Shown piece after piece: positions 13,674 through 28,647 of a stretch of 64,000 nucleotides of DNA. Made by a program: the position numbers and the translations under genes. Source of the DNA: an uncultured virus (IMG/VR IMGVR_UViG_3300042890_004141) (taxonomy: Duplodnaviria > Heunggongvirae > Uroviricota > Caudoviricetes); the IMG/VR virus record IMGVR_UViG_3300042890_004141, positions 62,001-126,000 of that record, one strand, 5' to 3'. Every line of letters starts with the position of its first letter. Positions within the stretch are counted from its first letter, which is position 1. The notes beneath the pieces are model-generated. The model was not told the DNA's origin, did no database searches, and saw only the letters and a list, made by a program, of their open reading frames with translations.

Positions 13674-13707
13674 TTAGTAACAGTTATATGTTATAAATAT
13701 TGTATCT

Positions 13708-14823
13708 TTATAAAGCAGTAATGAAGTAAGTTTCATATCCTCCATGACACCAACCGTAACCAAGTGGGAATTTCTCACTCATTAAATCATGAATAGAATT
13801 TTCCGGAATGTTACTACGTTCATCAAACTTTAGTTTAATGTGGATGCCTGGATTAGTTTGTTTTAGTTTATCTATAATGTTAGTTAGACTACTGAATGTT
13901 TGTTCGTTAAGGCAAACTATAACTTCGTCAAATTTCATATCTGAAGTACTATCAAAGTACAAATCATGATCAAAGAATAATTCCTTTAGTAGCTGACGTT
14001 CATATACCTTAATATCTTCTTTTACATAAAGTATACTCTGTCTTGAAGATGCTGTATTAAAATCACCCATAGCAAAATCTCTAGATTGATACTTGATAGG
14101 TAGGTAGTATAATGAGGTTGTTAGTTTGTCTGGATTGTTTAAGTAAGGGAACTTGCTTTCAATAAATAATCTTTCTGCTTCAATCTCAGCATAAGTTTCA
14201 CCTGATCTTCCTGGTTCTCTTGAAAATGTGTCTATTGAGTAGTTATACTCATATAAGGTTCTAGGAATATACAACCATTTTCCTTTAGTTTCAACATATC
14301 TAACTATGTTAGTATCGTTTTGATACCACTTTAATTGACCCTCGTCAAAACTAGGTATAATATTTCTCCAAGCCCGTCCCATTGGGGTATAGTTAAAAGT
14401 AGATATTTCTTCATAATCATAGTGGCCTCCTCCTTGAATTTCTACAAATTCACCTTTTTCATTTATATTTTTTGAATAACAGCTTATACCCGCTACATCA
14501 GGATGTTTTAAAAATAAGTGATTGTAAACCTCTAAAATGCGAGGATAAGCATAATCATCACTATCAAACTGAATTACTATTTCTCCGGTTGTTCCAGATT
14601 GTGGATTATAAAAGCATTCTTTTTTTCTAGACTGCTGATAGTACTTTACTCTAGAATCTTTTTTACAAATTTCCTTTAGTAATTCTTCAGCATTGTTATA
14701 GTCTGAAAAGTCATCAGTAACAATCCATTCCCAATCTTGATGGGTTTGGTCTAGAATTTGTTTGTATAGTTTTTCAACTAAATGGCTTCTTCTATAGAAT
14801 GATGTGCTTATACTAAATTTCAT
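13708..14823 (-). CDS. Glycosyltransferase family 2 (start corrected to MKFSIST)
   Basis: QTHQDWEWIVTDDFS and FDSDD (DXD) motifs; ATG at 14823 overlaps the upstream TGA (ATGA). Confidence 0.85.
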   Translation of the reverse strand: MKFSISTSFYRRSHLVEKLYKQILDQTHQDWEWIVTDDFSDYNNAEELLKEICKKDSRVKYYQQSRKKECFYNPQSGTTGEIVIQFDSDDYAYPRILEVYNHLFLKHPDVAGISCYSKNINEKGEFVEIQGGGHYDYEEISTFNYTPMGRAWRNIIPSFDEGQLKWYQNDTNIVRYVETKGKWLYIPRTLYEYNYSIDTFSREPGRSGETYAEIEAERLFIESKFPYLNNPDKLTTSLYYLPIKYQSRDFAMGDFNTASSRQSILYVKEDIKVYERQLLKELFFDHDLYFDSTSDMKFDEVIVCLNEQTFSSLTNIIDKLKQTNPGIHIKLKFDERSNIPENSIHDLMSEKFPLGYGWCHGGYETYFITAL

Positions 14824-15434
14824 GGTTTCCAGATTCCTATCCCACCGAAGTGTTCTTTTTGTCCAAAACAAGTTGTTTTACCTGATGATTTTATAGTAAC
14901 TATGTTAGTTTTAGAACCATAAGATAGGTCCTGCCAAAATTTATATACCTGTCCACCAGCACCATCTCTAAAGATATGGTCAGGATCAATATCATGAAAC
15001 ACAATATACCCTCTAGGTGACAATAATTCTTGATATAATTCAAAATCACGTCTTACACCTTCATATGAATGATCTCCATCAATAAAAATTAGATCATATT
15101 CAGGGCAGAACTCTTTAACTTTATCTCTTGTTTCTTCAGTTTGTGAATCAGCTATAAATAACTTAAAGTCTTCTCCATACATCATATAGTGAGACCAAAT
15201 TGTTCTACCTTTATCCTCATAATCAACAGCTGCTTTTTTACCTGTTGATAATTGAGACATAATATGAAATGAACTTCCTTTAAATCCAATTTCTAGGATA
15301 TTGTTAGCTTGAAATCCTTTAAGCCAGTAACCAAATGTAGTTATCTCCTCATAAACCTGCTGGAATAAAGTAGGTTCGATAAGGAAATCCTTAACATGAT
15401 AGTCAATTAATTCCTGTATACTTATGTCTTTCAT
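14820..15434 (-). CDS. Class I SAM-dependent methyltransferase (Methyltransf_24-like)
   Basis: ILEIG, YDLIFIDGDHSYEGVRRDF, LSPRGYIVFHD. Confidence 0.85.
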   Translation of the reverse strand: MKDISIQELIDYHVKDFLIEPTLFQQVYEEITTFGYWLKGFQANNILEIGFKGSSFHIMSQLSTGKKAAVDYEDKGRTIWSHYMMYGEDFKLFIADSQTEETRDKVKEFCPEYDLIFIDGDHSYEGVRRDFELYQELLSPRGYIVFHDIDPDHIFRDGAGGQVYKFWQDLSYGSKTNIVTIKSSGKTTCFGQKEHFGGIGIWKP

Positions 15435-16384
15435 TAGCTAAAAAAGAATACTGTTCCGTTTTCACTTTCAATATTACATCCATCTTCAAATTGGCATTTA
15501 AATCCTAATGAATTAAAACGTTCAACTATAGAATTTAAACGTCCTTGTGAATTGTGGTATTCTAAAAGAATTTTATCTGTTATTTCGAATATAGCATTTG
15601 ATGTACTATCAATAACATTCCATTCTTCACCTTCAATATCTAATTTTAAAAGATTAATTTTATTCCAACCTAAAGTATTTACTACATTCTGCAGGGTTGT
15701 TGTTTGTACTATTTTAGTATTAGGATTATCGAAAGTAGAAAATTCACTGTGCTGAATATCTAAAGTTGAGATTAAAGGATTATCTTCCTTCCAGTATAAA
15801 GCGGTTTGTTCTTCTCGGTCAGATAGTGCTTCACCGATAATAGTTATATTAATATTATCTAAAAAATTACTAATTAAAGCCTTGATGCTTCTATCATCAC
15901 ATTCTATAGCAGCTACAAGCTTGGCTCCTTTATTTAAAATGTATTGAGTAAATAAACCGACACTGGCCCCAGCGTCAATTACCTTCTCACAATTACTCAA
16001 ATCAAAGTCTTTATATTTGTCATCAACAAAAAACTCTCGGTAATTAACAAATGATGGATGGTAGTAATCGTTTATATTCTGTTTATGCTTGTATAGATTA
16101 GTGTATCTAAACCTCAAAATGATTCTGTCTAAGACTACACCTTCATCAATTAATTCTAAGGTAAAACCTCCAAAATCCTCTCTACTAAAATCAAATCCGT
16201 GTTTAGGGGTTGGTTGGAAGAATACATAAAGACCGGGTTGTACGTCCCATATCTTCATTTTGTATATAGTAGCATCTAAATCAATGTCTTTAGCTACTAT
16301 GTAACCATTCTTAACAGGGTGATAAACACGAAGATCAATTCGCTGTTCATCAAAATTGTAATTTATTAATTCAAAACTTTTCAT
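15434..16384 (-). CDS. FkbM-family methyltransferase
   Basis: VIDAGASVGLF, INLLKLDIEGEEW, ILLEYH. Confidence 0.85.
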   Translation of the reverse strand: MKSFELINYNFDEQRIDLRVYHPVKNGYIVAKDIDLDATIYKMKIWDVQPGLYVFFQPTPKHGFDFSREDFGGFTLELIDEGVVLDRIILRFRYTNLYKHKQNINDYYHPSFVNYREFFVDDKYKDFDLSNCEKVIDAGASVGLFTQYILNKGAKLVAAIECDDRSIKALISNFLDNINITIIGEALSDREEQTALYWKEDNPLISTLDIQHSEFSTFDNPNTKIVQTTTLQNVVNTLGWNKINLLKLDIEGEEWNVIDSTSNAIFEITDKILLEYHNSQGRLNSIVERFNSLGFKCQFEDGCNIESENGTVFFFS

Positions 16385-16409
16385 TATTTATAAAACTTTT
16401 TATTTTCTT

Positions 16410-17156
16410 TTACCCTAGTAACGGGACTATCCCGGCGTAGAGTGGTTCTCCAGTTATGCTAAATGGAGTTGTGTCTCCTCCAAGTACAACTGCTCCTTTA
16501 ACTAAGTTACCGGCACTCAAACCAAGTGTATTCTGTATTGTATAACTGTTTTCTGTGTAAGCTAAAATATTTGCTACAATCCTAGCTTTGTCTCCAGGTG
16601 TAGCTAAGTTAAAGCTAAATGGTGGTTGTGTCCAAGAAATATTATTTATCAAACTTACCCAAGTTCCTTCTGATGCTAGTGGGTTAGATGAATTAGGTAA
16701 TCCTCTTTGTGATTTCCATCCATTCTGAAATAAATCATCTTCGTCGGTGAAAGCGTACTGTACTATGTGAGATCCAGCGGCGAATGTAGAATCATTCAAC
16801 GAAGGTGTTACTATGTAGTAAGCATTACCTGCAGGTTCATTAAGTGAAGTAAAGGTTACTCCTGGTGCTGCTGTAGCAATAGAGGCAGAGTCTATAGTAT
16901 AAGCCGATAATTGAACGAAGTATAATTTACCTCTAGTTGTTCCTACAGGATAGGGAGTATACATTTGAAAGTCTTTTAATGCATTATTTCCTCTACTTCC
17001 AGTAGGCCATGTAAATTTATTATTTGGAGTAGAGGGAGGTGTGATGCCTAAGTAAGCATAGTTGTAGTTACTAGAAGCCATTTGGCCATTCCAAAAAGTA
17101 TCTAATGATCCTGTGTTATTAGCACCTACGCCGGTTGCCATCCAAATTCCTGCCAT
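16410..17156 (-). CDS. Hypothetical protein, probably structural
   Basis: 248-aa T/S/G/A-rich ORF with its own ATATTTAT motif at 17163. Confidence 0.55.
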   Translation of the reverse strand: MAGIWMATGVGANNTGSLDTFWNGQMASSNYNYAYLGITPPSTPNNKFTWPTGSRGNNALKDFQMYTPYPVGTTRGKLYFVQLSAYTIDSASIATAAPGVTFTSLNEPAGNAYYIVTPSLNDSTFAAGSHIVQYAFTDEDDLFQNGWKSQRGLPNSSNPLASEGTWVSLINNISWTQPPFSFNLATPGDKARIVANILAYTENSYTIQNTLGLSAGNLVKGAVVLGGDTTPFSITGEPLYAGIVPLLG

Positions 17157-17159
17157 ATA

Positions 17160-18353
17160 TTAATAAATATCCAAAAGTTTATTAACTGACATAATTACTT
17201 GATCTGGAGTAATAGTTTTAGTACATTCAAATTGGCGAGGGGTATCTTTATGGTCTGGACACCATTCCCAGTCGCCTGGATCTAACCATTTGCGGTTAAA
17301 ACATCCTTTACATGTTTTAGGATCTTCAGGATAAACACGTTCACATTCCTGGAATTCAGTATATGGATGGCTAAATCCTGAAATCATAATTGTAGGTGTG
17401 TTTAAAGACCAGGATAACCAACTTAATCCACTACCTACACCAATAAACATTTTAGCATCCCTAATATCAACCATTCTGTCTTGTAATGGTAAATCTCCAG
17501 TTTTATTAATTACACCTGTTAAAGTACCTCCTAGTTTAGAGTCATGCCATTCATCACCTAAAGGCTCTTGAGTAAGCATTACTACTTTATAACCTTTATC
17601 ATTTAAATAATCAATAACAGTTTGCCATCCTCCTTTATAATTCCAATACTTAGCATGGGCTGAAGCATGAGGAGCAATAACAACATAATCACCTTTAATA
17701 TCTGTTTTTGTTTTAGGTGAGTTTATAATAGGTTTAACTTCAGAGTATTTTAACCCTAAAATTTCACTTGCTGTTTGTTGTAAAGGATATTTTTTAAAGT
17801 CAATTGGTATCTTATCAAATATAACTTTTTTATCATCATAAAACCAACCAAGATTATACATTGCATAAAGGTTATCTACTTGAGAACCAGGTTTTACAAA
17901 CTCAATATGTGGGTAATTTCCTTCAAACCATTCATTGTGGAATGTAGAACAAATTACATCACACATAAATGTTTTTCTAAATTCTTCAATGTAAGGGAAC
18001 CATGCTAAAGTATCACCCATAGCCCCAGAATCAATGTGTATATAAACGCGTTTATCTTTTACACACCAATCATGATCAAATACTAAATTGTTGTTACTAT
18101 AAACTTCTATACGCCAATTAACACAATATTTAATGTTGGTACGAGTCCACATATTGTTATTAATTGTACTTTCATGTAATACACGATTTGTTTTTTTATT
18201 AATAAATTTAACTTTATATTCTTGTTCTGATGGTCCTAAAACTTCTAAGAAAGCACCATTAACAAAATTAACATTAAAAGTGTTTTGTGGTTTTTTGTTT
18301 TTAATATTTAATATTTTAGTATTACTATATTCTTTAACCAATATGTCTTTCAT
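17160..18353 (-). CDS. TibC/Aah-like (autotransporter-type) protein O-heptosyltransferase, GT9-like fold
   Basis: N-terminal beta domain (NFVNGAFLEV...KYCVNWRIEV), GAMGDTLAWFPYIEEFRK, FIGVGSGLSWLSW, ISGFSHPYTEF, and Cys cluster CKGCFN...WCP...FECTK. Confidence 0.8.
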   Translation of the reverse strand: MKDILVKEYSNTKILNIKNKKPQNTFNVNFVNGAFLEVLGPSEQEYKVKFINKKTNRVLHESTINNNMWTRTNIKYCVNWRIEVYSNNNLVFDHDWCVKDKRVYIHIDSGAMGDTLAWFPYIEEFRKTFMCDVICSTFHNEWFEGNYPHIEFVKPGSQVDNLYAMYNLGWFYDDKKVIFDKIPIDFKKYPLQQTASEILGLKYSEVKPIINSPKTKTDIKGDYVVIAPHASAHAKYWNYKGGWQTVIDYLNDKGYKVVMLTQEPLGDEWHDSKLGGTLTGVINKTGDLPLQDRMVDIRDAKMFIGVGSGLSWLSWSLNTPTIMISGFSHPYTEFQECERVYPEDPKTCKGCFNRKWLDPGDWEWCPDHKDTPRQFECTKTITPDQVIMSVNKLLDIY

Positions 18354-19281
18354 ATAAATTTATTAATTCAGCAGAACGATTTAACCAGGACAATTTTTCA
18401 GCGGTTTGTAAAGATAATTTCCTGTAGTCATTATATTCATTTATGATTGTATCTAACCCACGTAACATTTCTTGTAAATCACGAGGTGATCTCCATAACC
18501 CATGGAATGTAGTTTCTTCTTCAATCCATCCAAGTATAGGTAAACCACAAGCTGCTGCCTCTAATATAGTTAAATTAGGATGACCTGCTTCTAATTCTGA
18601 TGGGTGTAAAAAGATTGTATGTGAGTTATAAAGTTGTCTTAATTGTTCATTAGACGGCTCAGTTAAAATACTTAACTTAGGATAACCAAATATCCAAGGA
18701 TTGTCATTAAACCAATTTTCATTATTTTTTGGACCAGCTATTGTGATAGGTAAATTAGAAGCCATAGCTACTTTAATACCTAATTCAAATCCTTTTCTAT
18801 CATAAGAACCATATCCACCTAAACCATTATTTGCTAACATTAATAAACTATGATAAACAGGTGTTGTATCATTTGGTTTAAATGTATCTGTATTTACTCC
18901 ATGAGAAAAATAATGCACATTAGGCAATTCAAAATAATCAACTAAATAACGAGCAGGTACTAAAGAAAAAATAGATTTTTCCATAGCCTTTCGATTTTGT
19001 TTATAAACATCTGAGTCTTTACCGTAATGGTAAGCATGGTGGTCATGATGCTGGAAGATATAAGGTATGCCTTTGTCTGCTAATTCTAGGGCTAAGTTAG
19101 CAACATGAACCATTACTAAATCATAATCTCCTTTTTTAATTTCATTAGCCCATTTTATATCTACTTCATGACCTAATTCTTTTAAATTGCATGTAAATTC
19201 CCATACAATTTTTTCTATTGCTCCCCATGTGGGTGGAGGAATTGGTATTCCACATCCTGGATTTACTTGGCAGATTTTCAT
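18334..19281 (-). CDS. Glycosyltransferase family 4 (GT-B)
   Basis: IPPPTWGAIEK, HGVNTDTFKP, FLHPSELEAGHPNLTILEAAACGLP. Confidence 0.85.
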   Translation of the reverse strand: MKICQVNPGCGIPIPPPTWGAIEKIVWEFTCNLKELGHEVDIKWANEIKKGDYDLVMVHVANLALELADKGIPYIFQHHDHHAYHYGKDSDVYKQNRKAMEKSIFSLVPARYLVDYFELPNVHYFSHGVNTDTFKPNDTTPVYHSLLMLANNGLGGYGSYDRKGFELGIKVAMASNLPITIAGPKNNENWFNDNPWIFGYPKLSILTEPSNEQLRQLYNSHTIFLHPSELEAGHPNLTILEAAACGLPILGWIEEETTFHGLWRSPRDLQEMLRGLDTIINEYNDYRKLSLQTAEKLSWLNRSAELINLYERHIG

Positions 19282-19283
19282 TT

Positions 19284-19892
19284 TTAATTATGTACAAATA
19301 AACACTTATCTATAAAATATGGAATTAACTCATGTTTCATATTTTCTACTAATATTCCATCAGCTGCTGCTTCATGTTTATCTATTGAATATTTTTTTAT
19401 AACTTCACTTTTTGTAGTAAATTGACCAAAATCAATATAACTATGTTGGATTTTAGGAATAAAATGTCCATAATCTTTTTTATTATGACTATGAATATTA
19501 CTATATTTTCCTAAAATCATTTCCCAATATACAAAATTTACTTCAGGATTCCTAGTAATTGCTAGATTAATTTCTTCAAGCAAAATAGGCATAAAGTAAT
19601 TATCATCATTAGTATGGATAATCCAATCACCGGTTGCTAATTGGGTACCTACTTCTCTGCTATGATGACCCCAATGGCCGTGTCTTATTTCTGTATTTGT
19701 ATATTTAAATCTAGGATCTTTAAGATAATCTTCTAATTGATTTTTATGATTATTATTAAAACCATCATGCACTAAAATAACTTCCCAATTACTATAAGTT
19801 TGACAAACAATACTTTGAAGATTACATTTAAGCAAGTGTGTTTGTTCCCAACATGGAATAATAAAACTAAATTTTGTTTTTTCTATTTTCAT
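19284..19892 (-). CDS. Glycosyltransferase family 2
   Basis: FSFIIPCW, QTYSNWEVILVHDG, ATGDWIIHTNDDNY. Confidence 0.85.
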   Translation of the reverse strand: MKIEKTKFSFIIPCWEQTHLLKCNLQSIVCQTYSNWEVILVHDGFNNNHKNQLEDYLKDPRFKYTNTEIRHGHWGHHSREVGTQLATGDWIIHTNDDNYFMPILLEEINLAITRNPEVNFVYWEMILGKYSNIHSHNKKDYGHFIPKIQHSYIDFGQFTTKSEVIKKYSIDKHEAAADGILVENMKHELIPYFIDKCLFVHN

Positions 19893-19894
19893 AG

Positions 19895-21886
19895 TTAATA
19901 TAAAGTTAAGACTCCGTTTTTAGGTAATTGATTTTCAATATAATATTCATCAACTATTATTTTTTTATTTTCTATTTGAGTTTGATCATGTATATCATAA
20001 GATGAATAAACTATAATGTATGTTTTTTTAGGATCAAACATAACTTGTCTAAACCAAGCTATTTTATGTAAAACATTTACTGTTTCTTCAAAAAGCATAT
20101 TCTCATCTTCGTAAACTGTAATGTTAATATTTCTACTATCAGTTGAATTAGCGATATTTAAAAACACGGCAAATTGGTCTGGATGTTCTTTAATAGGTAG
20201 TACTGAAAAATATTCTACTCGGGAGTAATCTTTATGGGTAAAATTATCTTTTACTAATTTAGTAAATTCAGATTCTTCTTCCCAATATATTTTATCAGCA
20301 TCTTGATTAAAAGTATGGTATGTTAAATTTTCTAATCCGTTAGATTCACTACCCCATTTTACCATTAATGAATCATATTCTTTAGATGTTTTAATAGGTA
20401 AAAAATGATCTAAATAAAATTGAGGTTTAGTAGCTAAAAAATAAGTAATAACTGTATTGCCTTCTAGTTCTTTTCTTAAACCAACATATGCTTGTTTATT
20501 ATTTAATATTAAAGATACATTGTCGATATAAGAAGCATTTTCTAAAATATAATCATAATTTAAAAAGAATATTTTTTTAATACCTAAACTATTAGCTAAT
20601 GAAGCTGCATTGTAATAATTAGTATACACAGATGGTCCATGATAAACATCATTGTTTTCTCCAGATAACATCAAATCTACTCTCCAACTACTATAATCAA
20701 ACCAAGTATAACTATAGAATGTATGTTTAGTTAAAAGATTATTATTATCATAGATACAATAATCAACTATTTCTTGCAGTTCTTTAGGAATTGGTAAGTG
20801 TGATGTTAATATAATTTTTCTACCTGTTTTCTTTAAAGACTCAATACATTCTTTAGTTGTTTCAACTATAGAGTTTAAAATTGGGTAGGTTGAAACTACT
20901 ATTGCTTCTTCTTCAGTTTTAGGTAAATTAGAATAATATAAAGTAGATTCAATTAAACTTAAATTATAACTAAAATCAGTAAAGTCTAAGTAATTTACAT
21001 TATAATCATCCCAATAATTAAGATATACAGGTAGGTTATATATTAAAACAGGTATTTGATATGAAACTGCTTCTCTAATTACTAGAGGCATTGTTTCTTT
21101 ATCATTGTTTGTGCCCCTGGATGTAAATAGGAATAGATCCATTGCTTGATAAAAAGCATCTACATCTGTTCTTTCATTCCACCAAGTTAAATTATTGGGT
21201 TTGTTTTTCATTAACGGTTCCCAATAATGTCTAAAGTTGTCGGCTTGATTACCTACACAATGGAACTCATATTGAGGTAACGCTTTAGCATATTCAAAAA
21301 ACTCAGCTTGGTTTTTACGGGGAGTAAATAATCCAATATGAAGAATATGTTTTTTATTAGGATCTAATCCTAATTTTTGTAGTGCCCCTGTTCTATCCGG
21401 TCTTTCAATATATTCAATAGGATATTCAACTAATACTTTAGGAATGTCTATATCTTTATATTGATTAATCTGCCATTGTGATACAAACATAAACTTATCC
21501 GGGAAAAATTTCTTCTGAGTTGTGTCATAAGATGAGTCATGAGATGTTTCTACAATTTTATACTTTCTGTCTTGAGTATAAATTTGCTCAGCTATCTTAC
21601 TATCCATAAAAAACTCAGGTATTTCCTCTAAATGAATAATATCGGGTTGGATATTATTAATAATATTGATTAATTGCTGTTTATTATCGTCTAATGTGTA
21701 GAACTTTTCAGGGGCAACTAACTGCGTTATCTTATTGCGAGTCACTACTAATATACCACCAGTACAATCAACCCATTCAACTAAATAAATATCATAACTA
21801 TTTTTTAATAGTTCAATTTTTTTAGCTAAATATTGAGGTAATCCTCCTGTCGATAAATGAGGCGCTACATATAGTAGTTTCTCCAT
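19895..21886 (-). CDS. GT4-like glycosyltransferase fused to a second, unassigned C-terminal domain
   Basis: PHLSTGGLPQY, GLFTPRKNQ, DLFLFTS...ETMPLVIREA; C-terminal half has IILTSH and FFLNYDY. Confidence 0.8.
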   Translation of the reverse strand: MEKLLYVAPHLSTGGLPQYLAKKIELLKNSYDIYLVEWVDCTGGILVVTRNKITQLVAPEKFYTLDDNKQQLINIINNIQPDIIHLEEIPEFFMDSKIAEQIYTQDRKYKIVETSHDSSYDTTQKKFFPDKFMFVSQWQINQYKDIDIPKVLVEYPIEYIERPDRTGALQKLGLDPNKKHILHIGLFTPRKNQAEFFEYAKALPQYEFHCVGNQADNFRHYWEPLMKNKPNNLTWWNERTDVDAFYQAMDLFLFTSRGTNNDKETMPLVIREAVSYQIPVLIYNLPVYLNYWDDYNVNYLDFTDFSYNLSLIESTLYYSNLPKTEEEAIVVSTYPILNSIVETTKECIESLKKTGRKIILTSHLPIPKELQEIVDYCIYDNNNLLTKHTFYSYTWFDYSSWRVDLMLSGENNDVYHGPSVYTNYYNAASLANSLGIKKIFFLNYDYILENASYIDNVSLILNNKQAYVGLRKELEGNTVITYFLATKPQFYLDHFLPIKTSKEYDSLMVKWGSESNGLENLTYHTFNQDADKIYWEEESEFTKLVKDNFTHKDYSRVEYFSVLPIKEHPDQFAVFLNIANSTDSRNINITVYEDENMLFEETVNVLHKIAWFRQVMFDPKKTYIIVYSSYDIHDQTQIENKKIIVDEYYIENQLPKNGVLTLY

Positions 21887-21904
21887 AACCTTTGTTAAAT
21901 AAAA

Positions 21905-22183
21905 TTAGAATGAAGCTACTTTGGTATTTTCAACTTCAGTAGGGATAAATTCACCACTTTCAATGTTGATAGTACCAGCACCATACTTGTCAGAAAGAGT
22001 TTTACCCATTTCAGATTCTTCTTCTTTTAAATCATTAAAGAATTTAACAAGTTCAGTTTCTCTAGCTTCAAGTTGCAATTTAGCAATTCTAAGATTACCA
22101 AATTCATTTACAAGAGCAGTGTTTTTTTGTTGGATTTCTTTAAGAGCGTCAATCTCTTTTTTAGTTAATTTTTTTGTAGCCAT
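21905..22183 (-). CDS. Small coiled-coil protein, putative fibre chaperone; paralog of 537..788
   Basis: KLTKKEIDALKE...FG...KYGAGTINIESGEF. Confidence 0.6.
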   Translation of the reverse strand: MATKKLTKKEIDALKEIQQKNTALVNEFGNLRIAKLQLEARETELVKFFNDLKEEESEMGKTLSDKYGAGTINIESGEFIPTEVENTKVASF

Positions 22184-22212
22184 AAATTTATTTTAATAAC
22201 AGTTTATATCAA

Positions 22213-22244
22213 TAAATATATGAAAAATAATTTAAATATCCAAA
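22213..22244 (-). promoter_or_regulatory. Bacteroidota-type primary-sigma promoter overlapping an ATATTTAT motif
   Basis: Minus strand reads TTTGGA-N18-TATATTTA, the same spacing as the sites at 56433 and 57829. Confidence 0.5.
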
Positions 22245-22249
22245 CTATC

Positions 22250-25200
22250 TTAGAAAACACCAGTAATTATTCCTCCTACAACATTTATGTTTTGAGTTCC
22301 TGGAGGGTTCATTGGGATGTTTATAACTCCAGTATATCCAGGAGCTGCTCCTATAGAATATCCAGTTGAAGCATTAATTTGACCAGAAACATCTAGAGGA
22401 TATCCGGGAGATGCTGTACCAATTCCTAATCTACTATTTGTAACATCAGCATATAGGAAAGATACACTTTGTATTTGAGTTGTACTTGTAGTTCTAACTA
22501 GATAATCAGGTTGATTAGTAAACGTACCACCACTAATACCAGAAGTACCATTAAATGATAAACCTGAAGTACCAGCTGAACCGCTTGTACCTGAAGTACC
22601 GCTTACTGCAGATAAACCAGCAGCCCCTGCTATACCTGAAGTACCAGAGCTACCGGATGTGCCTGATGTGCCTGAAGTTTGAGACGCTCCTGAAGCTCCT
22701 GCCGCTCCAGAAGTACCATTTGATCCATTCGTACCTGAAGTTCCTGAAGTGTTAGAAGATCCTGAGGCTCCTGCTGTTCCGTTTGAACCTGCTGAACCTG
22801 AAGTGCCAGAAGTATTTGATAAACCACTTGCTCCTGCTAGTCCTGAAGTACCACTTGAGCCTGAAGAACCACTTGAGCCTGAAGTACCAGAAGTGTTTGA
22901 GGATCCAGAAGGACCGGCTGTACCATTTGATCCTGTTGAACCACTAGAACCAGCAGTACCTGATGTGTTTGAAGATCCTGAAGGGCCAGCGGTTCCATTA
23001 GAACCTGTTGAACCTGAAGAACCACTAGTTCCTGATGTACTTGATACACCTGAACCACCATCTACTCCTGATGTACCTGTACTTCCAGACGAACCACTTG
23101 AGCCAGATGTTCCTGAAGTATTAGATGAACCTGAAGGGCCTGCGGTTCCATTTGAACCTGTAGATCCGCTTGAACCTGAAGTGCCAGAAGTGTTAGATGA
23201 ACCTGATGGACCTGCTGTACCATTTGATCCTGTTGATCCAGAAGAACCAGATGTTCCTGATGAACTTGAAGAACCAGAAGCGCCTGCTGTACCGTTAGAT
23301 CCTGATGAACCTGAAGTACCAGAAGTGGCACTTACTGCTGAAAGACCAGCAGCACCTGCTATACCAGAAGTACCTGAAGAACCGGATGTACCACTTGTTC
23401 CTGAGGTTGTTGAACTTCCAGAGGCACCTGCTGTTCCATTAGAACCAGTTGAGCCAGAAGTTCCAGAAGTATTAGAAGAGCCTGAAGCTCCAGCCGTTCC
23501 ATTAGAACCAGTAGAACCACTAGTACCTGATGTGTTAGATAAACCTGAGTTCCCTGCTGTACCACTTGAGCCTGTAGAACCACTAGTTCCAGAAGTGCCG
23601 GAAGTATTGGAGGATCCAGATGGACCTGCTGTACCATTAGAACCGGTTGATCCTGAAGTACCGCTTGTACCTGAAGTAGATGATGCTCCTGAATTACCTG
23701 CTGCACCTGATGATCCATTTGAACCAGCTGAACCTGAAGTTCCAGATGTATTAGATATACCACTAGCTCCTGCTAATCCGGATGTTCCGCTTGAACCAGA
23801 TGATCCACTAGAACCTGAAGTGCCAGAAGTGTTAGATGAACCTGATGGACCTGCTGTACCATTTGATCCTGTTGATCCAGAAGAACCAGATGTTCCTGAT
23901 GTATTAGAAGATCCAGAAGGACCTGCAGTTCCATTAGAACCTGTTGATCCACTTGAACCTGAAGTACCGGAAGTAAAGGATGTACCTGAAGGGCCTGCTG
24001 TTCCATTTGAACCTGTTGACCCTGATGATCCACTAGTACCAGAAGTACTTGAAACGCCTGAACCTCCATCAACACCAGAAGTACCTGTTGAACCAGAAGA
24101 TCCAGAAGAACCAGATGAGCCGCTTGTTTGTGATGCTCCACTAGCTCCTGCACTACCATTTGATCCTGTAGAACCAGAAGTACCAGAAGTGCCTGAAGAA
24201 TTTGATTGCCCTGAATTACCTGCTGTACCTGAACTCCCTGTTGAACCAGATGATCCGCTTGAACCTGAAGTAAAAGATTCTCCAGATGCTCCTGCGTTTC
24301 CTGAAGTACCATTTGATCCTGAAGAACCGCTTGATCCTGAAGTACCAGAAGTGCCTGAAGAAGAAGATGATCCAGAAGCACCAGCAGTACCATTAGAACC
24401 TGAACTTCCTGAGGTACCAGAAGTAGCACTTACTGCTGAAAGACCAGCAGCGCCTGCTATACCTGAAGTACCAGATGAACCGCTTGTTCCTGAAGTACCT
24501 GAAGTATTGCTACTACCTGATACTCCTGCACTACCATTTGATCCTGTTGATCCTGAAGTTCCTGAGGTACCTGAAGTGTTGCCTGTGCCTGAAGCACCTG
24601 CTGAACCATTTGATCCAGCTGAACCAGATGTACCTGAAGTTCCACTAGTACCTGAAGAACCACTATTTTGTGATAAACCTGAAGTACCTGTTGATCCAGA
24701 AGAACCAGAAGTACCTGAGGTTGAACTTTGTCCTGAATTACCTGCCACTCCAGAAGAACCATTTGATCCACTTGAACCTGATGTTCCAGAACTAGCTGAT
24801 TGTCCTGATGATCCATCAACACCTGATGAACCACTTGAACCTGATGAACCACTTGATCCAGAAGTACTAGACACTCCTGAAGAACCATTTGATCCTGATG
24901 ATCCAGATGAACCACTAGATCCACTTGTACCAGAAGTAGAAGAACTTCCTGAGGCACCGGCTGAACCATTTGATCCAGCTGAACCACTAGTACCTGATGT
25001 ATTTGATATACCACTAGCTCCTGCTAATCCTGATGTACCAGAAGAGCCAGAGCTACCTGACGATCCAGAAGATCCGCTTGAACCAGATGTCCCAGATGTG
25101 TTACTTTGTCCTGAAGAACCATTTGACCCTGATGAACCACTTGTTCCTGATGTACCACTAGAACTACTTTCTCCTGAAGAACCATTTGACCCTGATGAAC

Positions 25201-27205
25201 CAGAAGTACCACTAGTACCAGAAGTTCCAGCACTTCCACTTGCCTGAGAAAGACCTGAGGTACCTGTTGATCCAGAACTACCTGAAGTTCCAGAAGTTGA
25301 AGATTGTCCACTATTACCCGCTGCTCCAGAAGAACCATTTGATCCACTAGATCCAGATGTACCTGAAGTACCGCTTGTACCAGAAGAATTAGATTGTCCA
25401 CTACTACCTGCTAATCCAGAAGAACCGTTTGATCCAGAGGAACCACTAGTGCCTGAAGTTGAAGATTGACCTGATGATCCATCTAACCCGCTTGAACCAG
25501 ATGAACCGCTTGAGCCAGAAGATCCGCTTGTTCCACTAGTACCTGATGATTGAGATAGACCAGAAGTACCAGTTGATCCACTTGAACCTGAAGTACCAGA
25601 AGTACTTGATTGACCACTATTGCCTGCTACTCCAGATGAACCATTTGATCCAGAACTACCTGAAGTACCTGAAGTTGAGGATTGACCTGATGAACCATCT
25701 GCTCCTGTTGAACCTGAAGATCCAGAAGAGCCACTGGTTCCTGAAGTTGAAGATTGTCCTGATGAGCCATTAATACCTGAAGAACCATTTGATCCACTAG
25801 ATCCAGATGAGCCGCTTGAACCTGATGTTCCACTTGTTGAAGATATTCCTGAGCCTCCATCAACACCAGAAGTACCTGAGCTGCCTGAGCTGCCTGAACT
25901 ACCGCTTGTACCTGATGTACCGCTTGTTTGAGATAAACCATCAGTTCCGGCTGAACCATTTGAACCTGAAGAACCACTAGTTCCACTAGTACCAGAAGAT
26001 TGTGATAGACCAGAAGTACCTGTACTACCGCTTGATCCAGAAGTACCTGATGTGCTTGATTGGCCGCTATTTCCAGCTACACCTGAAGATCCATTTGAAC
26101 CTGAACTGCCTGAGGTACCAGAGGTAGATGATTGTCCTGATGAGCCATCTAATCCACTTGAACCTGAAGATCCAGATGAACCACTGGTTCCACTTGAACC
26201 TGATATTCCTGATGATCCATCTACTCCGCTTGAACCAGATGAGCCATTTGAGCCTGAAGAACCACTAGTTCCACTAGTGCCTGATGATTGAGATAAACCT
26301 GAAGTGCCTGTTGATCCACTTGATCCAGAAGTACCAGAAGTAGAAGATTGACCTGAGTTACCTGCTAAACCTGAGGAACCGCTTGAACCTGAACTACCTG
26401 ATGAACCTGACGTTCCAGAAGAACCATCTTGTCCACTAGAACCAGATGAACCACTTGAGCCAGAAGATCCTGAACTACCTGATGATCCACTTGTACCACT
26501 ACTGCCATCATTACCACTTGAACCAGCAGAACCACTAGATCCAGAAGATCCACTTGTACCACTGATTCCTGAAGATTGTGATAGACCAGAAGTACCAGTT
26601 GATCCACTTGAACCTGAAGTTCCTGAAGTAGATGATTGTCCACTATTACCTCCTGCTCCTGAAGAACCATTTGATCCTGATGAACCAGAAGTTCCACTAG
26701 TACCTGAACTTCCTGAAGAACCACTTGAGCCGGATGTACCACTAGTTCCTCCACTTGTTCCTGAAGAACCTTCTACACCACTAGTTCCTGATGAACCTGT
26801 TGAGCCTGATGATCCACTTGTGCCTGCTGTTCCACTTGTACCTGAAGAGCCAGATATTCCTGAGGTACCAGATGAACCTCCTGAAGTACCTGAACTTCCG
26901 CTTACACCAGAAGTACCATTTGACCCTGATAAACCACTTGAACCTGCTAATCCAGAAGAACCATTTGATCCAGATGTACCTGAAGTACCTGAGGTGCCTG
27001 ATGTGCCTGCTGTTCCACTTCCGCCTCCGCCTCCTTGAACTAAAGATACAACACCATCATCGTTTATAGTTAAAACGTAACCTTCCCAACCTTCAGTTAC
27101 AATAGGTAAATTAAATTTATTAAAAGCTAATGACCTATCAAAAAAACCTCTACCTTGGTTTGGGTTGTCTAAACGATTATTACCTCTGTATCTGTTTTCG
27201 GCCAT
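22250..27205 (-). CDS. Giant Gly-Ser-Thr triplet-repeat (collagen-like) fibre protein, 1651 aa
   Basis: About 1500 aa of GSS/GTS/GSN triplets; short unique N-terminus; C-terminus has the RLGIGTASP fibre motif. Confidence 0.85.
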   Translation of the reverse strand: MAENRYRGNNRLDNPNQGRGFFDRSLAFNKFNLPIVTEGWEGYVLTINDDGVVSLVQGGGGGSGTAGTSGTSGTSGTSGSNGSSGLAGSSGLSGSNGTSGVSGSSGTSGGSSGTSGISGSSGTSGTAGTSGSSGSTGSSGTSGVEGSSGTSGGTSGTSGSSGSSGSSGTSGTSGSSGSNGSSGAGGNSGQSSTSGTSGSSGSTGTSGLSQSSGISGTSGSSGSSGSAGSSGNDGSSGTSGSSGSSGSSGSSGSSGSSGQDGSSGTSGSSGSSGSSGSSGLAGNSGQSSTSGTSGSSGSTGTSGLSQSSGTSGTSGSSGSNGSSGSSGVDGSSGISGSSGTSGSSGSSGSSGLDGSSGQSSTSGTSGSSGSNGSSGVAGNSGQSSTSGTSGSSGSTGTSGLSQSSGTSGTSGSSGSNGSAGTDGLSQTSGTSGTSGSSGSSGSSGTSGVDGGSGISSTSGTSGSSGSSGSSGSNGSSGINGSSGQSSTSGTSGSSGSSGSTGADGSSGQSSTSGTSGSSGSNGSSGVAGNSGQSSTSGTSGSSGSTGTSGLSQSSGTSGTSGSSGSSGSSGSSGLDGSSGQSSTSGTSGSSGSNGSSGLAGSSGQSNSSGTSGTSGTSGSSGSNGSSGAAGNSGQSSTSGTSGSSGSTGTSGLSQASGSAGTSGTSGTSGSSGSNGSSGESSSSGTSGTSGSSGSNGSSGQSNTSGTSGSSGSSGSSGSSGSSGTSGLAGASGISNTSGTSGSAGSNGSAGASGSSSTSGTSGSSGSSGSSGSNGSSGVSSTSGSSGSSGSSGSSGVDGSSGQSASSGTSGSSGSNGSSGVAGNSGQSSTSGTSGSSGSTGTSGLSQNSGSSGTSGTSGTSGSAGSNGSAGASGTGNTSGTSGTSGSTGSNGSAGVSGSSNTSGTSGTSGSSGTSGIAGAAGLSAVSATSGTSGSSGSNGTAGASGSSSSSGTSGTSGSSGSSGSNGTSGNAGASGESFTSGSSGSSGSTGSSGTAGNSGQSNSSGTSGTSGSTGSNGSAGASGASQTSGSSGSSGSSGSTGTSGVDGGSGVSSTSGTSGSSGSTGSNGTAGPSGTSFTSGTSGSSGSTGSNGTAGPSGSSNTSGTSGSSGSTGSNGTAGPSGSSNTSGTSGSSGSSGSSGTSGLAGASGISNTSGTSGSAGSNGSSGAAGNSGASSTSGTSGTSGSTGSNGTAGPSGSSNTSGTSGTSGSTGSSGTAGNSGLSNTSGTSGSTGSNGTAGASGSSNTSGTSGSTGSNGTAGASGSSTTSGTSGTSGSSGTSGIAGAAGLSAVSATSGTSGSSGSNGTAGASGSSSSSGTSGSSGSTGSNGTAGPSGSSNTSGTSGSSGSTGSNGTAGPSGSSNTSGTSGSSGSSGSTGTSGVDGGSGVSSTSGTSGSSGSTGSNGTAGPSGSSNTSGTAGSSGSTGSNGTAGPSGSSNTSGTSGSSGSSGSSGTSGLAGASGLSNTSGTSGSAGSNGTAGASGSSNTSGTSGTNGSNGTSGAAGASGASQTSGTSGTSGSSGTSGIAGAAGLSAVSGTSGTSGSAGTSGLSFNGTSGISGGTFTNQPDYLVRTTSTTQIQSVSFLYADVTNSRLGIGTASPGYPLDVSGQINASTGYSIGAAPGYTGVINIPMNPPGTQNINVVGGIITGVF
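23172..23901. repeat. Exact 91-bp direct repeat (23172-23262 and 23811-23901) inside the GST-repeat gene
   Basis: gaacctgaagtgccagaagtgttagatgaacc...ccagatgttcctgatg is present at both positions. Confidence 0.85.
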
Positions 27206-28126: not shown

Positions 28127-28647
28127 TATAATCTTGATAATTCAATGTTAACTTTATCAGACGGAGTGTAGTGGGCGTTACATATAACAGAAACACTATA
28201 ACCAAATTCGTTTAAGTCTGTTTCATATGGATTATTTCCATTACCATCTGTATAAGGATATTCAGGGTCTTTACCTACAAAGAATTGAGCTGTACTAACA
28301 TTATCTATTTCCCAATATCCATTTTGGAACATAATAATATCTCCTATGTCTGGATAAACATTAGCGTCAACTAAATCATCTCGTAAAAATTTATAAGTAA
28401 CATTCCATTTAAAATCAGCTCCAAAATCACTTACAGGATATTCAAACTGACTTGTAGCGATTAAAGCATATAATAAAACAGGGTCAGCGAAATTTCTTCC
28501 AGTAGATGCTTCACCATACATGTTTACTTTAGTAGTAGTACTATTGTATTTATAGAATACACACTGTTGTGAAATAATGTTCTGCATCAACTCTCGGTTG
28601 ATGTATCTAAACATTGAAATATCTCTAGCCTGTCCAAATAATGCCAT
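28126..28647 (-). CDS. Neck / head-completion protein (gp14-like)
   Basis: NMYGEA, PDIGDII...YWEI motifs; synteny with neighbouring neck genes. Confidence 0.6.
   Translation of the reverse strand: MALFGQARDISMFRYINRELMQNIISQQCVFYKYNSTTTKVNMYGEASTGRNFADPVLLYALIATSQFEYPVSDFGADFKWNVTYKFLRDDLVDANVYPDIGDIIMFQNGYWEIDNVSTAQFFVGKDPEYPYTDGNGNNPYETDLNEFGYSVSVICNAHYTPSDKVNIELSRL

Follow-up and report, generated by a model that had tools for sequence, protein, structure and literature searches.

A candidate phage-encoded O-glycosylation module beside Ser/Thr-rich collagen-like fibre genes in an uncultured T4-like lake phage

The window analyzed here, a stretch of 64,000 nucleotides (positions 62,001 to 126,000 of the IMG/VR record IMGVR_UViG_3300042890_004141), derives from an uncultured lake-water phage represented by a T4-like contig of 135.8 kb (CheckV completeness 83%). 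It contains virion morphogenesis genes coding for the terminase, portal, protease, gp23-like capsid protein, fibre proteins, and tail sheath, and within this virion gene block lies a glycosyltransferase (GT) cluster bordered by fibre genes on either side. All genes of the cluster named in an initial annotation of this DNA, along with their placement amid virion morphogenesis genes, were confirmed, and all of them are on the minus strand:

11097..13673, minus strand, spike/fibre protein, 858 aa (NF048003 GTA_spike_fiber, 1.3e-57; Pfam Gly_rich_2)
13708..14871, minus strand, accessory GT2, 387 aa (Pfam Glycos_transf_2, 8.8e-13, residues 20-145)
14820..15434, minus strand, accessory Methyltransf_24 methyltransferase, 204 aa (Pfam PF13578, 5.5e-14)
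15434..16384, minus strand, accessory FkbM-family methyltransferase, 316 aa (TIGR01444, 2.2e-19; Pfam Methyltransf_21)
16410..17156, minus strand, accessory ORF, 248 aa (nearest Atlas clusters are hypothetical proteins)
17160..18353, minus strand, core enzyme 3, predicted Aah/TibC-family (BAHT) protein O-glycosyltransferase, 397 aa (TIGR04414)
18334..19281, minus strand, core enzyme 2, GT4-like GT-B glycosyltransferase, 315 aa (weak Pfam GT1/GT4 match, ~4e-6)
19284..19892, minus strand, accessory GT2 (GT-A), 202 aa (Pfam Glycos_transf_2, 4.9e-14)
19895..21886, minus strand, core enzyme 1, predicted GT4 + GT-A fusion, 663 aa (Pfam Glycos_transf_1, 4e-12)
21905..22183, minus strand, ORF of a virus-only family, 92 aa (nearest Atlas clusters are all viral hypothetical proteins)
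22250..27205, minus strand, collagen-like fibre protein, 1651 aa (Pfam Collagen, 2e-151)
27254..29837, minus strand, conserved block of three genes (396, 173, and 290 aa), located ahead of the collagen gene in relatives
37404..40295, minus strand, second GSS/GTS collagen-like protein, 963 aa (Pfam Collagen, 3.3e-88)

In the 1651-aa fibre protein, 445 triplets of the G-[S/T]-S type are framed by an N-terminal domain of ~57 aa and a globular domain of ~90 aa at the C-terminus. The 445 G-X-Y triplets are split into 57 runs, and 51 of the 56 breaks between them are exactly three residues long (e.g., STS or NTS), which preserves the triplet register. The X position is occupied by serine in 203 and by threonine in 127 of the 445 triplets, and the Y position by serine in 319, such that serine and threonine account for 50% of all residues, with 17 prolines and a single lysine in the entire protein. 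Among clear matches in relatives, its N-terminal domain is 87-100% and its C-terminal domain 57-100% identical. The gene for the 963-aa collagen-like protein (S 31%, T 14%, G 24%) was missing from the initial annotation. The window additionally codes for a non-collagen Ser/Thr-rich fibre of 2251 aa (30626-37381), while the 858-aa spike/fibre gene lies directly downstream of the GT cluster. The 396-aa protein of the three-gene block is homologous to a protein annotated in phage immuto as 'putative head completion protein'. A second GT/methyltransferase cluster is found elsewhere in the phage genome.

The central enzyme of the cluster had been proposed to be a TibC/Aah-like transferase, and both the profile comparison and the alignment to TibC bear this out. 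The 17160-18353 product reaches 319.8 bits with TIGR04414 (hepto_Aah_TibC), well above the 200-bit cut-off (E 2.2e-95; positions 12-373 of the 374 in the profile), and aligns to TibC (PDB 4RAP) with an E-value of 9e-57 over TibC residues 21-386. It retains TibC D110, K230, R286, W305, and the cysteines 339, 342, 358, and 370; TibC T226 is replaced by serine, and thus three of the four sugar-binding residues are kept. The catalytic, sugar-binding, and iron-finger residues, whose roles in TibC are described in PMC4358343, are invariant across 20/20 phage homologues. Judging from these sequence features, it is a bona fide member of the Aah/TibC family, and we propose it as the priming enzyme. The characterized members of this family glycosylate protein serines (PMC4358343).

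Core enzyme 1 combines a GT-B (GT4) domain with a GT-A-fold domain (~325-555) and a β-sandwich (~558-645), of which Pfam annotates the N-terminal half as GT1/GT4 and leaves the C-terminal half without annotation. The full-length structural model has a pLDDT of 84. Foldseek searches match the N-terminal half to BshA and WaaG (~1e-9), which along with a chlorovirus glycosyltransferase are the top matches of the GT4 domain. A separate model of the C-terminal half (pLDDT 95) was aligned by VIA-align to the WrtF fucosyltransferase (Z 14.1, rmsd 3.1 Å, 166 residues) and glycogenin (Z 13.9, rmsd 3.6 Å, 183 residues), amid many tied matches at Z 12-14; on the strength of the model, this half is predicted to contain a newly recognized GT-A domain. 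Core enzyme 1 is found in all relatives with sufficient upstream sequence.

To study the conservation of the system, we examined the best 80 of 323 viral contigs that encode a TibC-like relative. In these, the genes for the GT4 fusion, the second GT4, and the TibC-like enzyme are contiguous wherever the sequence permits. Core enzyme 2 (mean column identity 75%, n=26 sequences) immediately precedes the TibC-like gene in 77 loci; the remaining three loci offer less than 400 nt of upstream sequence. The conserved core consists of these three genes only. The other enzymes of the cluster (both GT2s and the two methyltransferases) and the 248-aa ORF, which has no family or PDB match, are variable accessories that recur among the 80 loci only in an identical contig (L008), apart from a 31%-identity match to the 202-aa GT2 in another (L061). 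FkbM domains in relatives are either fused to the GT4 gene or placed between the GT4 and TibC-like genes. The 204-aa methyltransferase also shows weak RMNT_CmcI and O-methyltransferase matches, and the true start of the 387-aa GT2 may lie further downstream, given that the ORF as called from a TTG codon shares 52 nt with the upstream gene. The 92-aa ORF, earlier labeled 'chaperone-like', returned no Pfam, NCBIfam, or PHROG match and nothing in support of that label; in relatives its gene either precedes the GT4 fusion or follows the TibC-like gene.

Other loci carry a sulfotransferase or 2OG oxygenases as alternative tailoring genes. A trio of GT2-MT, DUF6445, and 2OG-Fe(II) oxygenase genes was seen in 6 of 82 loci screened (L014, L016, L059-L061, L070) and also in L184; it accompanies Pro-type collagens in 3/3 cases with visible fibres and is absent from every S/T-collagen-only locus among those screened. 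The accessory genes therefore track the fibre chemistry.

Clustering the TibC-like proteins of the same 80 loci at 90% identity yielded 30 lineages. An S/T collagen gene is present in 16 of the 20 lineages with at least 1.5 kb visible upstream of the core; of the 14 with at least 4 kb visible, 12 have an S/T collagen and 2 a Pro/Tyr/Gln/Thr-type collagen, although many of the lineages counted are mutually related and these tallies are not independent events. Conversely, the GT core is present at 9/9 loci retrieved via the fibre C-terminal domain, and the GT core and GST-repeat genes are thus mostly not independent of each other. In one sub-clade (L064-L069, L080) the collagen gene is convergent and downstream of the core. 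Among records with an S/T collagen next after the 290-aa gene, six have the TibC-like gene, a seventh ends in the GT4 fusion, and three further ones end within or just past the collagen; records without collagen in this syntenic slot retain Ser-rich non-collagen fibres, and none of the five has a TibC-like gene. As an exception, the fibre upstream of the L032 core is S/T-rich (27% S+T) but non-collagen. A 268-kb record with an S/T collagen gene at its extreme end and no TibC-like gene is ambiguous, as the contig breaks inside the collagen repeat.

The association extends to distant lineages. In the Microcystis phage Mel-JY01 (43% identity in the TibC-like domain), a GTS/GSS collagen ORF that lies unannotated on the plus strand is followed by a Ser-rich structural protein (508 aa, 18% Ser) and then by a 1226-aa fusion running from a GT4 domain to the TibC-like domain. 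In the 735-kb megaphage LR756501 (TibC-like match 42% identical), an S/T collagen gene and a GT4-fusion-like gene are divergently oriented; after the latter comes a 743-aa ORF whose start resembles the 315-aa GT4 (by eye, over the first residues) and whose end is the TibC-like match. Going by these sequences, core genes appear to be fused in both phages. The same collagen/core gene order recurs in two Flavobacteriales MAG contigs. The cultured relative immuto has no TibC-like gene, S/T collagen pattern, or GT genes in the syntenic slot. In LR756504 a TibC-like gene (38% identity) occurs without GT4 neighbors, and its 636 kb contain no strict G-S/T-S/T run.

With regard to the sugar donor, neither the 135.8-kb contig nor 184 related loci yielded any gene of the ADP-heptose pathway, and none of 81 sampled genomes from the family of a Winogradskyella MAG, itself a weak host assignment, passed the cut-off of the heptose-1-phosphate adenylyltransferase model. 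Candidate donors are ADP-heptose and other ADP-sugars, for example ADP-glucose. No membrane segment was detected in any cluster enzyme (highest 19-residue Kyte-Doolittle mean 1.26), nor was a flippase, polymerase, or initiating phosphotransferase found in the cluster or in the annotation of the window and contig. An autotransporter encoded by the phage was likewise not found, and a look-up of RNA runs listed none that contains this stretch.

Taken at the level of sequence comparison, these observations favor, with a probability of roughly 0.6, a phage-encoded cytoplasmic module for O-glycosylation of its own Ser/Thr collagen-like fibre(s). This reading had been put forward in the initial annotation and is supported by the HMM and co-occurrence tests, which both came out in its favor. 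Our inferred scheme, covering acceptor, donor sugar, sequence of reactions, methyl cap, and glycan function, is as follows: during infection, the TibC/Aah-family enzyme would place an ADP-activated sugar on the hydroxyl groups of serines and threonines in the (G-S/T-S)n repeats of the 1651-aa fibre, the proposed main acceptor, and probably of the 963-aa fibre, a candidate second acceptor. The glycan would then be extended by the GT4 + GT-A fusion (19895-21886) and the GT4 (18334-19281); in this phage the two GT2s may add more sugars, which the FkbM and Methyltransf_24 enzymes may methylate. The predicted end product is a brush-like, densely glycosylated virion fibre, with the glycan potentially serving fibre folding/stability, adhesion, or shielding. 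As the three-gene core is constant among relatives and the set of tailoring enzymes (methyltransferases, a sulfotransferase, or 2OG oxygenases) differs from one to the next, lineages are likely to have diversified the glycan.

Accessory genes often insert at fibre regions, and the phage has its second GT/methyltransferase cluster at another site, points that we count against glycosylation of the phage's own fibre. The virion proteins might also be glycosylated with the collagen as a mere neighbor, the main acceptor being the non-collagen Ser/Thr-rich fibres (the 2251-aa protein or the 858-aa one, itself a possible alternative acceptor) or the globular ends of the fibre. This would agree with the fibre genes on both sides of the cluster, the non-collagen fibre preceding the L032 core, the 508-aa protein separating the collagen ORF from the GT fusion in Mel-JY01, and the L072/L073 fibre, in which collagen is joined to a β-roll and a Peptidase_S74 end, nearer to the β-helical substrates known for the family. 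Nevertheless, the recurring partner is a collagen-like gene, in 14/14 lineages with at least 4 kb visible and in three distant lineages; the oxygenase accessories follow the collagen type, and the relatives with Ser-rich fibres in place of collagen lack the TibC-like gene (0/5 records). We hence consider a non-collagen main acceptor unlikely.

A target other than virion protein appears decidedly improbable, whether phage DNA, a small soluble molecule, or the glycans of the host envelope, where modification could mask receptors or exclude superinfecting phages. Pathways for polysaccharides and natural products, to which there are weak NCBIfam matches, often contain GT2, GT4, and FkbM enzymes, and PHROGs classes the phage GT4 relatives as 'moron, auxiliary metabolic gene and host takeover'. 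DNA-modifying phage glycosyltransferases are documented (bioRxiv 10.1101/2023.12.21.572611; PMC13326640), and the phage carries 7-deazaguanine genes, by which it modifies nucleotide metabolism; these, however, are ~40 kb away from the GT cluster. Against such targets also stand the glycosylation of protein serines by the characterized TibC-family members (PMC4358343), the lack of membrane segments and of detectable lipid-carrier, flippase, or polymerase genes, and the position of the core within the structural block, where it adjoins fibre genes even in lineages of 42-43% identity, with fusions. Finally, TibC forms a dodecameric ring embracing its substrate (PMC4358343) and the iron-finger cysteines needed for oligomerization are conserved, as might be expected of a non-catalytic scaffold for fibre assembly that leaves only the other transferases, if any, active; the invariance of the catalytic base and nucleotide-sugar-binding residues in 20/20 phage homologues, unexpected in a purely structural protein, makes this very improbable.

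Literature searches found no published description of such a phage system. To our knowledge, the substrates of the enzyme family known so far are β-helical autotransporter passengers, not collagen. The closest parallels, TibC-TibA and Aah-AIDA-I of E. coli (TIGR04414; PDB 4RAP, 4RB4; PMC4358343), belong to the same family by HMM and residue alignment, sharing the catalytic Asp, the ADP-sugar-binding Lys, Arg, and Trp, and the four-cysteine iron finger. Also shared are a cytoplasmic enzyme, a neighboring gene for a long surface protein made of repeats, and predicted hyper-glycosylation of many hydroxyl residues in that protein. In contrast to these bacterial systems, the owner here is a lytic-type phage and the repeat protein a proline-poor collagen-like G-S/T-S fibre rather than a β-helical autotransporter; the heptose-stereoselectivity residue (P300 in TibC, S294 in AAH) is an invariant glycine in the phage homologues, and ADP-heptose genes were not found in the phage contig or related loci. 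The phage enzyme is further accompanied by two more glycosyltransferase genes and variable tailoring enzymes, implying an oligosaccharide rather than single heptoses.

On the acceptor side, the exosporium protein BclA of Bacillus anthracis/B. cereus is a collagen-like glycoprotein, O-glycosylated with an oligosaccharide whose cap is the unusual sugar anthrose. It is comparable in being a collagen-like filament of the bacterial type, with triplets that carry hydroxyl residues, and it forms a hair-like nap on a dormant particle. BclA has GXT repeats and its anthrose is methylated; it differs in using another priming enzyme family, in residing on the spore and not a virion, and in having proline-containing triplets, as against 17 prolines in the 1651 residues of the phage fibre. 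Mycobacteriophages of the Che8 type reportedly encode glycosyltransferases that O-glycosylate their own structural proteins in the cytoplasm of actinobacterial hosts ('Virion glycosylation influences mycobacteriophage immune recognition'), the acceptors said to be C-terminal tails of capsid and tail-tube proteins; these differ in lacking a BAHT-family enzyme and a collagen-like acceptor. Serine-rich repeat adhesins of Gram-positive cocci undergo sequential cytoplasmic O-glycosylation by GtfA/GtfB (GT4-type) and variable extending transferases. Mimivirus-type giant viruses also encode collagen-like proteins; they infect eukaryotes, include nucleotide-sugar synthesis in their glycosylation clusters, and glycosylate collagen through hydroxylysine. 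In Mimivirus and its relatives, a virus-encoded multi-gene glycosylation machinery decorates the virion fibrils (see PMC9614988).

The source record of this DNA (135,792 bp; 83% complete by CheckV) is that of a myovirus with T4-like head genes, in which we recovered a terminase, portal, prohead protease, gp23-like major capsid protein and tail sheath, and all genes of the window lie on the minus strand. The nearest deposited relatives of its capsid protein are those of Flavobacterium phage immuto (53% identity), Microcystis phage Mel-JY01 (47%) and Rhodothermus phage RM378 (34%). ORF calling combined with Pfam and NCBIfam scans retrieved the 1651-aa repeat protein and every gene of the glycosyltransferase (GT) and methyltransferase cluster that the initial annotation had described downstream of it, as well as a second GSS/GTS collagen-like protein absent from that list. 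The fibre and the genes transcribed after it, in order, followed by the second collagen-like gene, are:

22250-27205, minus: collagen-like fibre, 1651 aa (Pfam Collagen, PF01391, 2e-151)
21905-22183, minus: 92-aa ORF
19895-21886, minus: 663-aa GT4 protein
19284-19892, minus: 202-aa GT2
18334-19281, minus: 315-aa GT4 (weak match)
17160-18353, minus: 397-aa GT9/TibC-like protein
16410-17156, minus: 248-aa ORF with no family match
15434-16384, minus: FkbM methyltransferase
14820-15434, minus: Methyltransf_24 methyltransferase
13708-14871, minus: 387-aa GT2
37404-40295, minus: second GSS/GTS collagen-like protein, 963 aa

The 92-aa ORF had been labeled chaperone-like, a label we dropped because its ESM Atlas matches are hypothetical clusters only, as are those of the 248-aa ORF. 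PDB sequence searches with the 663-aa, 315-aa and 248-aa proteins and with a profile of the C-terminal domain yielded nothing usable, a 37-residue match to a sugar-phosphate isomerase at an e-value of ~0.005 being the best. We propose that the cluster enzymes O-glycosylate the repeats of the phage's own collagen-like fibre in the cytoplasm, a reading to which we assign a probability of roughly 0.62. In the cytoplasm of the infected cell, the TibC-like enzyme would prime the repeats by transferring a sugar from an ADP-activated donor to their Ser and Thr residues. Extension of the glycan would fall to the GT4/GT-A fusion and the second GT4, and its completion to lineage-specific enzymes, in this phage the two GT2s and two methyltransferases. 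None of the cluster enzymes has a membrane-type hydrophobic stretch, and family scans of the contig ORFs found no flippase, polymerase or initiating phosphotransferase.

The predicted acceptor comprises an N-terminal domain of ~57 residues, a triplet region and a C-terminal non-repeat domain of ~90 residues. The triplet region holds 445 G-X-Y triplets in 57 runs, the longest perfect run being 25 triplets, and 51 of the 56 interruptions are exactly one triplet with the glycine replaced (STS, NTS, QSS, etc.), such that the triplet frame is preserved. Serine (203) and threonine (127) dominate position X and serine (319 of 445) position Y; together they make up half of all fibre residues, and with only 17 P, 1 K, 7 R, 18 D and 6 E among 1651 residues the protein is almost free of proline and charge. 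PHROG scans assigned no functional family to the terminal domains of either collagen-like protein. The fibre C-terminal domain (22253-22552) displays a 'GIGT-SP--PLDV-G' motif that is repeated many times in a 2251-aa tail-fibre-like protein (30626-37381), and both match phrog_5906. A plus-strand ORF (22749-25247, 832 aa) and nested minus-strand ORFs (23062-26754) were rejected as genes, being triplet-repeat shadows of the collagen gene; such shadows, up to 832 aa long, could be mis-called as genes.

The initial annotation had further likened the product of 17160-18353 to TibC and Aah, and a search with the autotransporter O-heptosyltransferase model bore this out (TIGR04414; e-value 2.2e-95, 319.8 bits against a cut-off of 200), with the match spanning profile positions 12-373 of 374 and a genome-level scan giving the identical result. 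Alignment to TibC (PDB 4RAP; e-value 9e-57) allowed us to trace its functional residues. In TibC, according to its structure paper (PMC4358343), Asp110 is the catalytic base and Thr226, Lys230, Arg286 and Trp305 bind ADP-heptose, with K230 serving as the phosphate/heptose ligand, R286 reading the adenine and W305 acting as the heptose-O4 ligand; the same paper places the four cysteines of the iron-finger motif at 339, 342, 358 and 370, and a position governing heptose stereoselectivity at P300 in TibC and S294 in AAH. Of these, D110, K230, R286 and W305 correspond to identical residues in the phage enzyme (D114, K235, R293 and W312), T226 is replaced by S231 with retention of the hydroxyl, the iron-finger cysteines all align with cysteines (C348, C351, C365 and C377), and the stereoselectivity position is occupied by glycine. 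The catalytic, sugar-binding, iron-finger and stereoselectivity positions are invariant in 20 of 20 aligned phage homologues (59-100% identity). The N-terminal β-barrel (Pfam TibC_1st) scores below its cut-off (16.8 versus 27 bits), the pairwise alignment nonetheless beginning at TibC residue 21. TibC assembles as a dodecameric ring; the residues F265/V266 at the tip of its β-hairpin thumb are not conserved in the alignment. The defining substrate of the family is a β-helical autotransporter adhesin whose gene is located close by. Since no autotransporter or pertactin-like match was found among the ~120 contig ORFs scanned with Pfam, and since the conserved neighbor is a collagen-like fibre, we regard the protein as, by sequence, a genuine member of the bacterial autotransporter heptosyltransferase (BAHT) family whose acceptor is presumably different. 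A more divergent TibC-like subtype (195-217 bits) forms the C-terminal part of ~760-770-aa open frames in four records (G102:C1:10758-12703, and also G101, G104 and G008); it adjoins collagens with 91-97% S/T and occurs as two tandem copies in one record.

The 663-aa protein (19895-21886) combines an N-terminal half matching GT4 enzymes (e.g., BshA and WaaG) with a C-terminal half that has no family match by sequence. Modeled alone with 26 homologues (pLDDT 95), the latter folds into a GT-A fold followed by a β-sandwich, and VIA-align recovered the WrtF fucosyltransferase (Z 14.1, rmsd 3.1 Å over 166 residues) and glycogenin (Z 13.9, rmsd 3.6 Å over 183 residues), with many glycosyltransferases and some nucleotidyltransferases tied at Z 12-14; on the strength of this model, the C-terminal half is a predicted GT-A domain. 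Because of this fold, the conserved core described below would hold four transferase-type domains, for a total of six in this phage, in addition to the two methyltransferases.

We mapped the window proteins onto the best 80 of the 323 viral contigs carrying a TibC-like relative. In the mapped loci the 663-aa GT4, the 315-aa GT4 and the TibC-like gene always form a contiguous three-gene core; the 315-aa GT4 lies directly upstream of the TibC-like gene in 77 of the 80 loci, and in the remaining three <400 nt is available on that side. Among these 80, only an identical contig (L008) shares the two methyltransferases, the two GT2s and the 248-aa ORF; the 92-aa ORF is common, with a varying position. 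At the same spot relatives display other tailoring genes: FkbM domains either fused to the GT4 protein or placed between the GT4 and TibC-like genes, an SAM-methyltransferase-like N-terminal extension on some TibC-like proteins (a weak UbiG-like match, e-value 0.0019, with the motif judged by eye), a sulfotransferase, and a trio of a GT2-methyltransferase fusion, DUF6445 and a 2OG-Fe(II) oxygenase. The sulfotransferase (PF13469, 1.3e-18) lies directly upstream of the GT4 fusion in loci L072 (4263-5081) and L073 (6260-7078), where it adjoins a giant fibre made of S/T collagen, a β-roll and a Peptidase_S74 chaperone end. The oxygenase trio was detected in 6 of 82 loci screened (L014, L016, L059-L061 and L070), and additionally in L184; those with visible fibres (L059, L070 and L184) all have Pro-type collagens, and the trio is absent from every locus with S/T collagen only. 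As the trio lineages are related, this association may represent one or a few evolutionary events.

To quantify the linkage of the core to collagen genes, we clustered the 80 TibC-like proteins at 90% identity into 30 lineages, scoring as positive a collagen-like ORF with S+T in at least 50% of X/Y positions or a homologue of the fibre C-terminal domain. Sequence upstream of the core extends to 1.5 kb or more in 20 lineages, of which 16 are positive, and to 4 kb or more in 14, of which 12 are positive; the other two of these 14 carry collagens of another kind, whose X positions hold Pro and Tyr and whose Y positions hold Gln and Thr, and a further negative lineage has its visible 3 kb occupied by the oxygenase trio. 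The collagen gene of one sub-clade lies instead downstream of the TibC-like gene, in convergent orientation, and the pairing has therefore survived rearrangement. Conversely, loci retrieved through the fibre C-terminal domain contain the core in nine of nine cases. The fibre is preceded by 396-, 173- and 290-aa genes (27254-29837). The conserved 396-aa gene retrieved 62 loci with 2 kb or more of sequence beyond the 290-aa gene, and in 50 of these an S/T collagen begins immediately after it, some relatives having collagens of >2800 residues with 97% S/T in X/Y. When ten such collagen-bearing records were examined, the TibC-like gene was present elsewhere on the contig in six; of the remaining four, one breaks off in the GT4 fusion and the other three are truncated in the collagen or shortly after it. 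Among five records lacking a collagen in the slot after the 290-aa gene, none has a TibC-like gene; in one of these, 268 kb long, an S/T collagen gene is cut by the end of the record, which makes this case ambiguous. Three apparent exceptions to the linkage were resolved: in L072 and L073 the upstream gene encodes the C-terminal part of the giant fibre, the N-terminal part of which consists of S/T collagen, and record G103 ends within the GT4 fusion gene.

The pairing extends to distant lineages. Mel-JY01, whose TibC-like domain is 43% identical, displays in order a plus-strand GTS/GSS ORF at the start of the record, a 508-aa structural protein (18% Ser) and a 1226-aa fusion of GT4 and TibC-like domains. 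Its collagen-like ORF (GenBank PP395634, 1-3052) is unannotated and open from the record start, the gene probably being split by the record's start point; the deposited reverse-strand 'hypothetical proteins' (1-651 and 739-2298), which are rich in Pro, Glu and Val, are shadow frames of it. The 735-kb megaphage LR756501 (TibC-like, 42% identical) carries a 699-aa S/T collagen-like ORF and, in divergent orientation to it, a 1161-aa homologue of the GT4 fusion; next to the latter comes a 743-aa ORF whose first residues resemble, by eye, the start of the 315-aa GT4 and which ends in a TibC-like match. A genome collection yielded only two matches, both phage-like contigs binned into Flavobacteriales MAGs, with the order S/T collagen, GT4 fusion, GT4 and TibC-like gene in each. 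In the cultured relative immuto there is neither a TibC-like gene nor a strict G-S/T-S/T run, and its syntenic slot is free of collagen and GT genes.

Two loci depart from this pattern. In L032, the last negative among the 20 lineages, the upstream fibre is S/T-rich and not collagen-like, as might be seen if the main acceptor were a different virion protein; set beside the recurrence of S/T collagens next to the core, we consider such an acceptor rather unlikely in this phage. The clear exception is the megaphage LR756504, with a solitary TibC-like gene (38% identical) and no strict G-S/T-S/T run in its genome. The oxygenase trio tracks collagen type, as expected if the cluster puts hydroxyl-linked modifications on collagen-like chains. 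We judge a target outside the virion, namely the host envelope, DNA or a small molecule, to be improbable. Finally, a non-catalytic role for the TibC-like protein appears, given the invariant catalytic and sugar-binding positions, very improbable.

Within the favored reading, namely glycosylation of the fibre, the identity of the donor sugar can be narrowed to some extent. The family donor is ADP-glycero-manno-heptose. The conservation of the adenine-reading arginine speaks for an ADP-sugar. Three results speak against heptose specifically. Pfam scans of ~120 ORFs found no ADP-heptose pathway genes in the contig, and a tblastn search, a limited test with a single bacterial rfaE-domain-II query, found no heptose-1-phosphate adenylyltransferase in the phage genome or 184 loci. 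Among 81 sampled Flavobacteriaceae genomes, the rfaE domain II model scored above its cut-off in none and the ADP-glucose pyrophosphorylase (glgC) model in 29; ADP-heptose may thus be unavailable if the host is a member of this family, a weak host assignment based on the MAG binning and the host of immuto. A 'cytidylyltransferase-like protein' of Mel-JY01 was rejected as a heptose-1-phosphate adenylyltransferase, having only weak NMN adenylyltransferase matches.

A broader joint reading, which we offer tentatively and consider on balance doubtful, is that glycosylation is a structural principle of these fibres rather than a decoration. Because G-S/T-S collagen is almost without proline, hydroxyproline and charge pairs, it may form a stable triple helix only after dense Ser/Thr O-glycosylation, by analogy with vent-worm cuticle collagen, where glycosylated threonine stabilizes the triple helix. 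The same TibC-like/GT4 core would then serve two interchangeable chemistries, direct S/T glycosylation and 2OG-oxygenase hydroxylation of Pro-type collagens; the donor of the BAHT-type enzyme may have shifted from ADP-heptose to a different ADP-sugar (e.g., ADP-glucose); and each lineage would acquire a distinct 'glyco-serotype' on the giant fibres through variable tailoring with methyl, sulfate or extra sugars. With TibC/Aah the phage module shares an enzyme family by sequence, and with the glycosylated collagen-like protein of the BclA nap of Bacillus spores, self-glycosylation of mycobacteriophage virions and the glycosylated fibrils of giant viruses it shares a logic; it differs from all of these in its owner, acceptor class, constant association with two further transferase genes and exchangeable tailoring set. 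Our literature search turned up no account of this module or of a BAHT-type enzyme in a phage, and to our knowledge bacteriophage virion self-glycosylation is known from a few actinobacteriophages only. If the proposed function holds, virion self-glycosylation would be widespread in aquatic phages, because relatives of the enzyme occur on hundreds of viral contigs, 1769 metagenomic proteins match it at e-values of at most 1e-10, and the lake-water and freshwater runs listed for the cluster represent 24 study codes (2016-2025), four of them possibly the source of this DNA. A bacterial enzyme family associated with virulence would be extended to a new kind of owner and of substrate, there would be a natural route to glycosylated, proline-free collagen, and a variable glycan coat would be implicated in determining phage adsorption, stability, or escape from grazing and defense. 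The presence of the module in the cultured Mel-JY01 makes the question directly testable.

At least half of the sampled words of 13708-22300 were found in 21 of the 24 listed runs, and none of the listed runs containing this region is on record as RNA. Many of the matching metagenomic proteins have been named 'autotransporter strand-loop-strand O-heptosyltransferase' by the JGI annotation pipeline. Elsewhere on the full contig (G000:C1) the phage encodes a second glycosyltransferase/methyltransferase cluster (13567-21192: GT2, Methyltransf_24, GT2 and GT1, interspersed with no-family ORFs), which could act on the same glycan, DNA or another target; GroEL-like (537 aa) and GroES-like (96 aa) chaperonins (24865-26770); a 7-deazaguanine (preQ0-type) set of GTP cyclohydrolase I, QueD-like PTPS, radical-SAM QueE-like and QueC genes (33794-38421), whose presence suggests that the phage DNA is modified; and, at the contig end, a Zeta_toxin/AAA_33 kinase-like ORF (134757-135581; PF06414, 2e-16). 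Between the PhoH and capsid genes of the window (41499-43681) lie a homing-endonuclease-like ORF, a phosphatidylserine decarboxylase-like ORF (PF02666, 5e-24) and a weak DDAH_eukar ORF (PF19420, 3e-6), contents uncommon in a structural block. Four large proteins in a row (1613-10183; 789, 802, 494 and 578 aa), with one to three Laminin_G_3 (concanavalin-like lectin) domains each, could be carbohydrate-binding fibre or baseplate proteins; small LamG proteins come after the fibres in relatives too.
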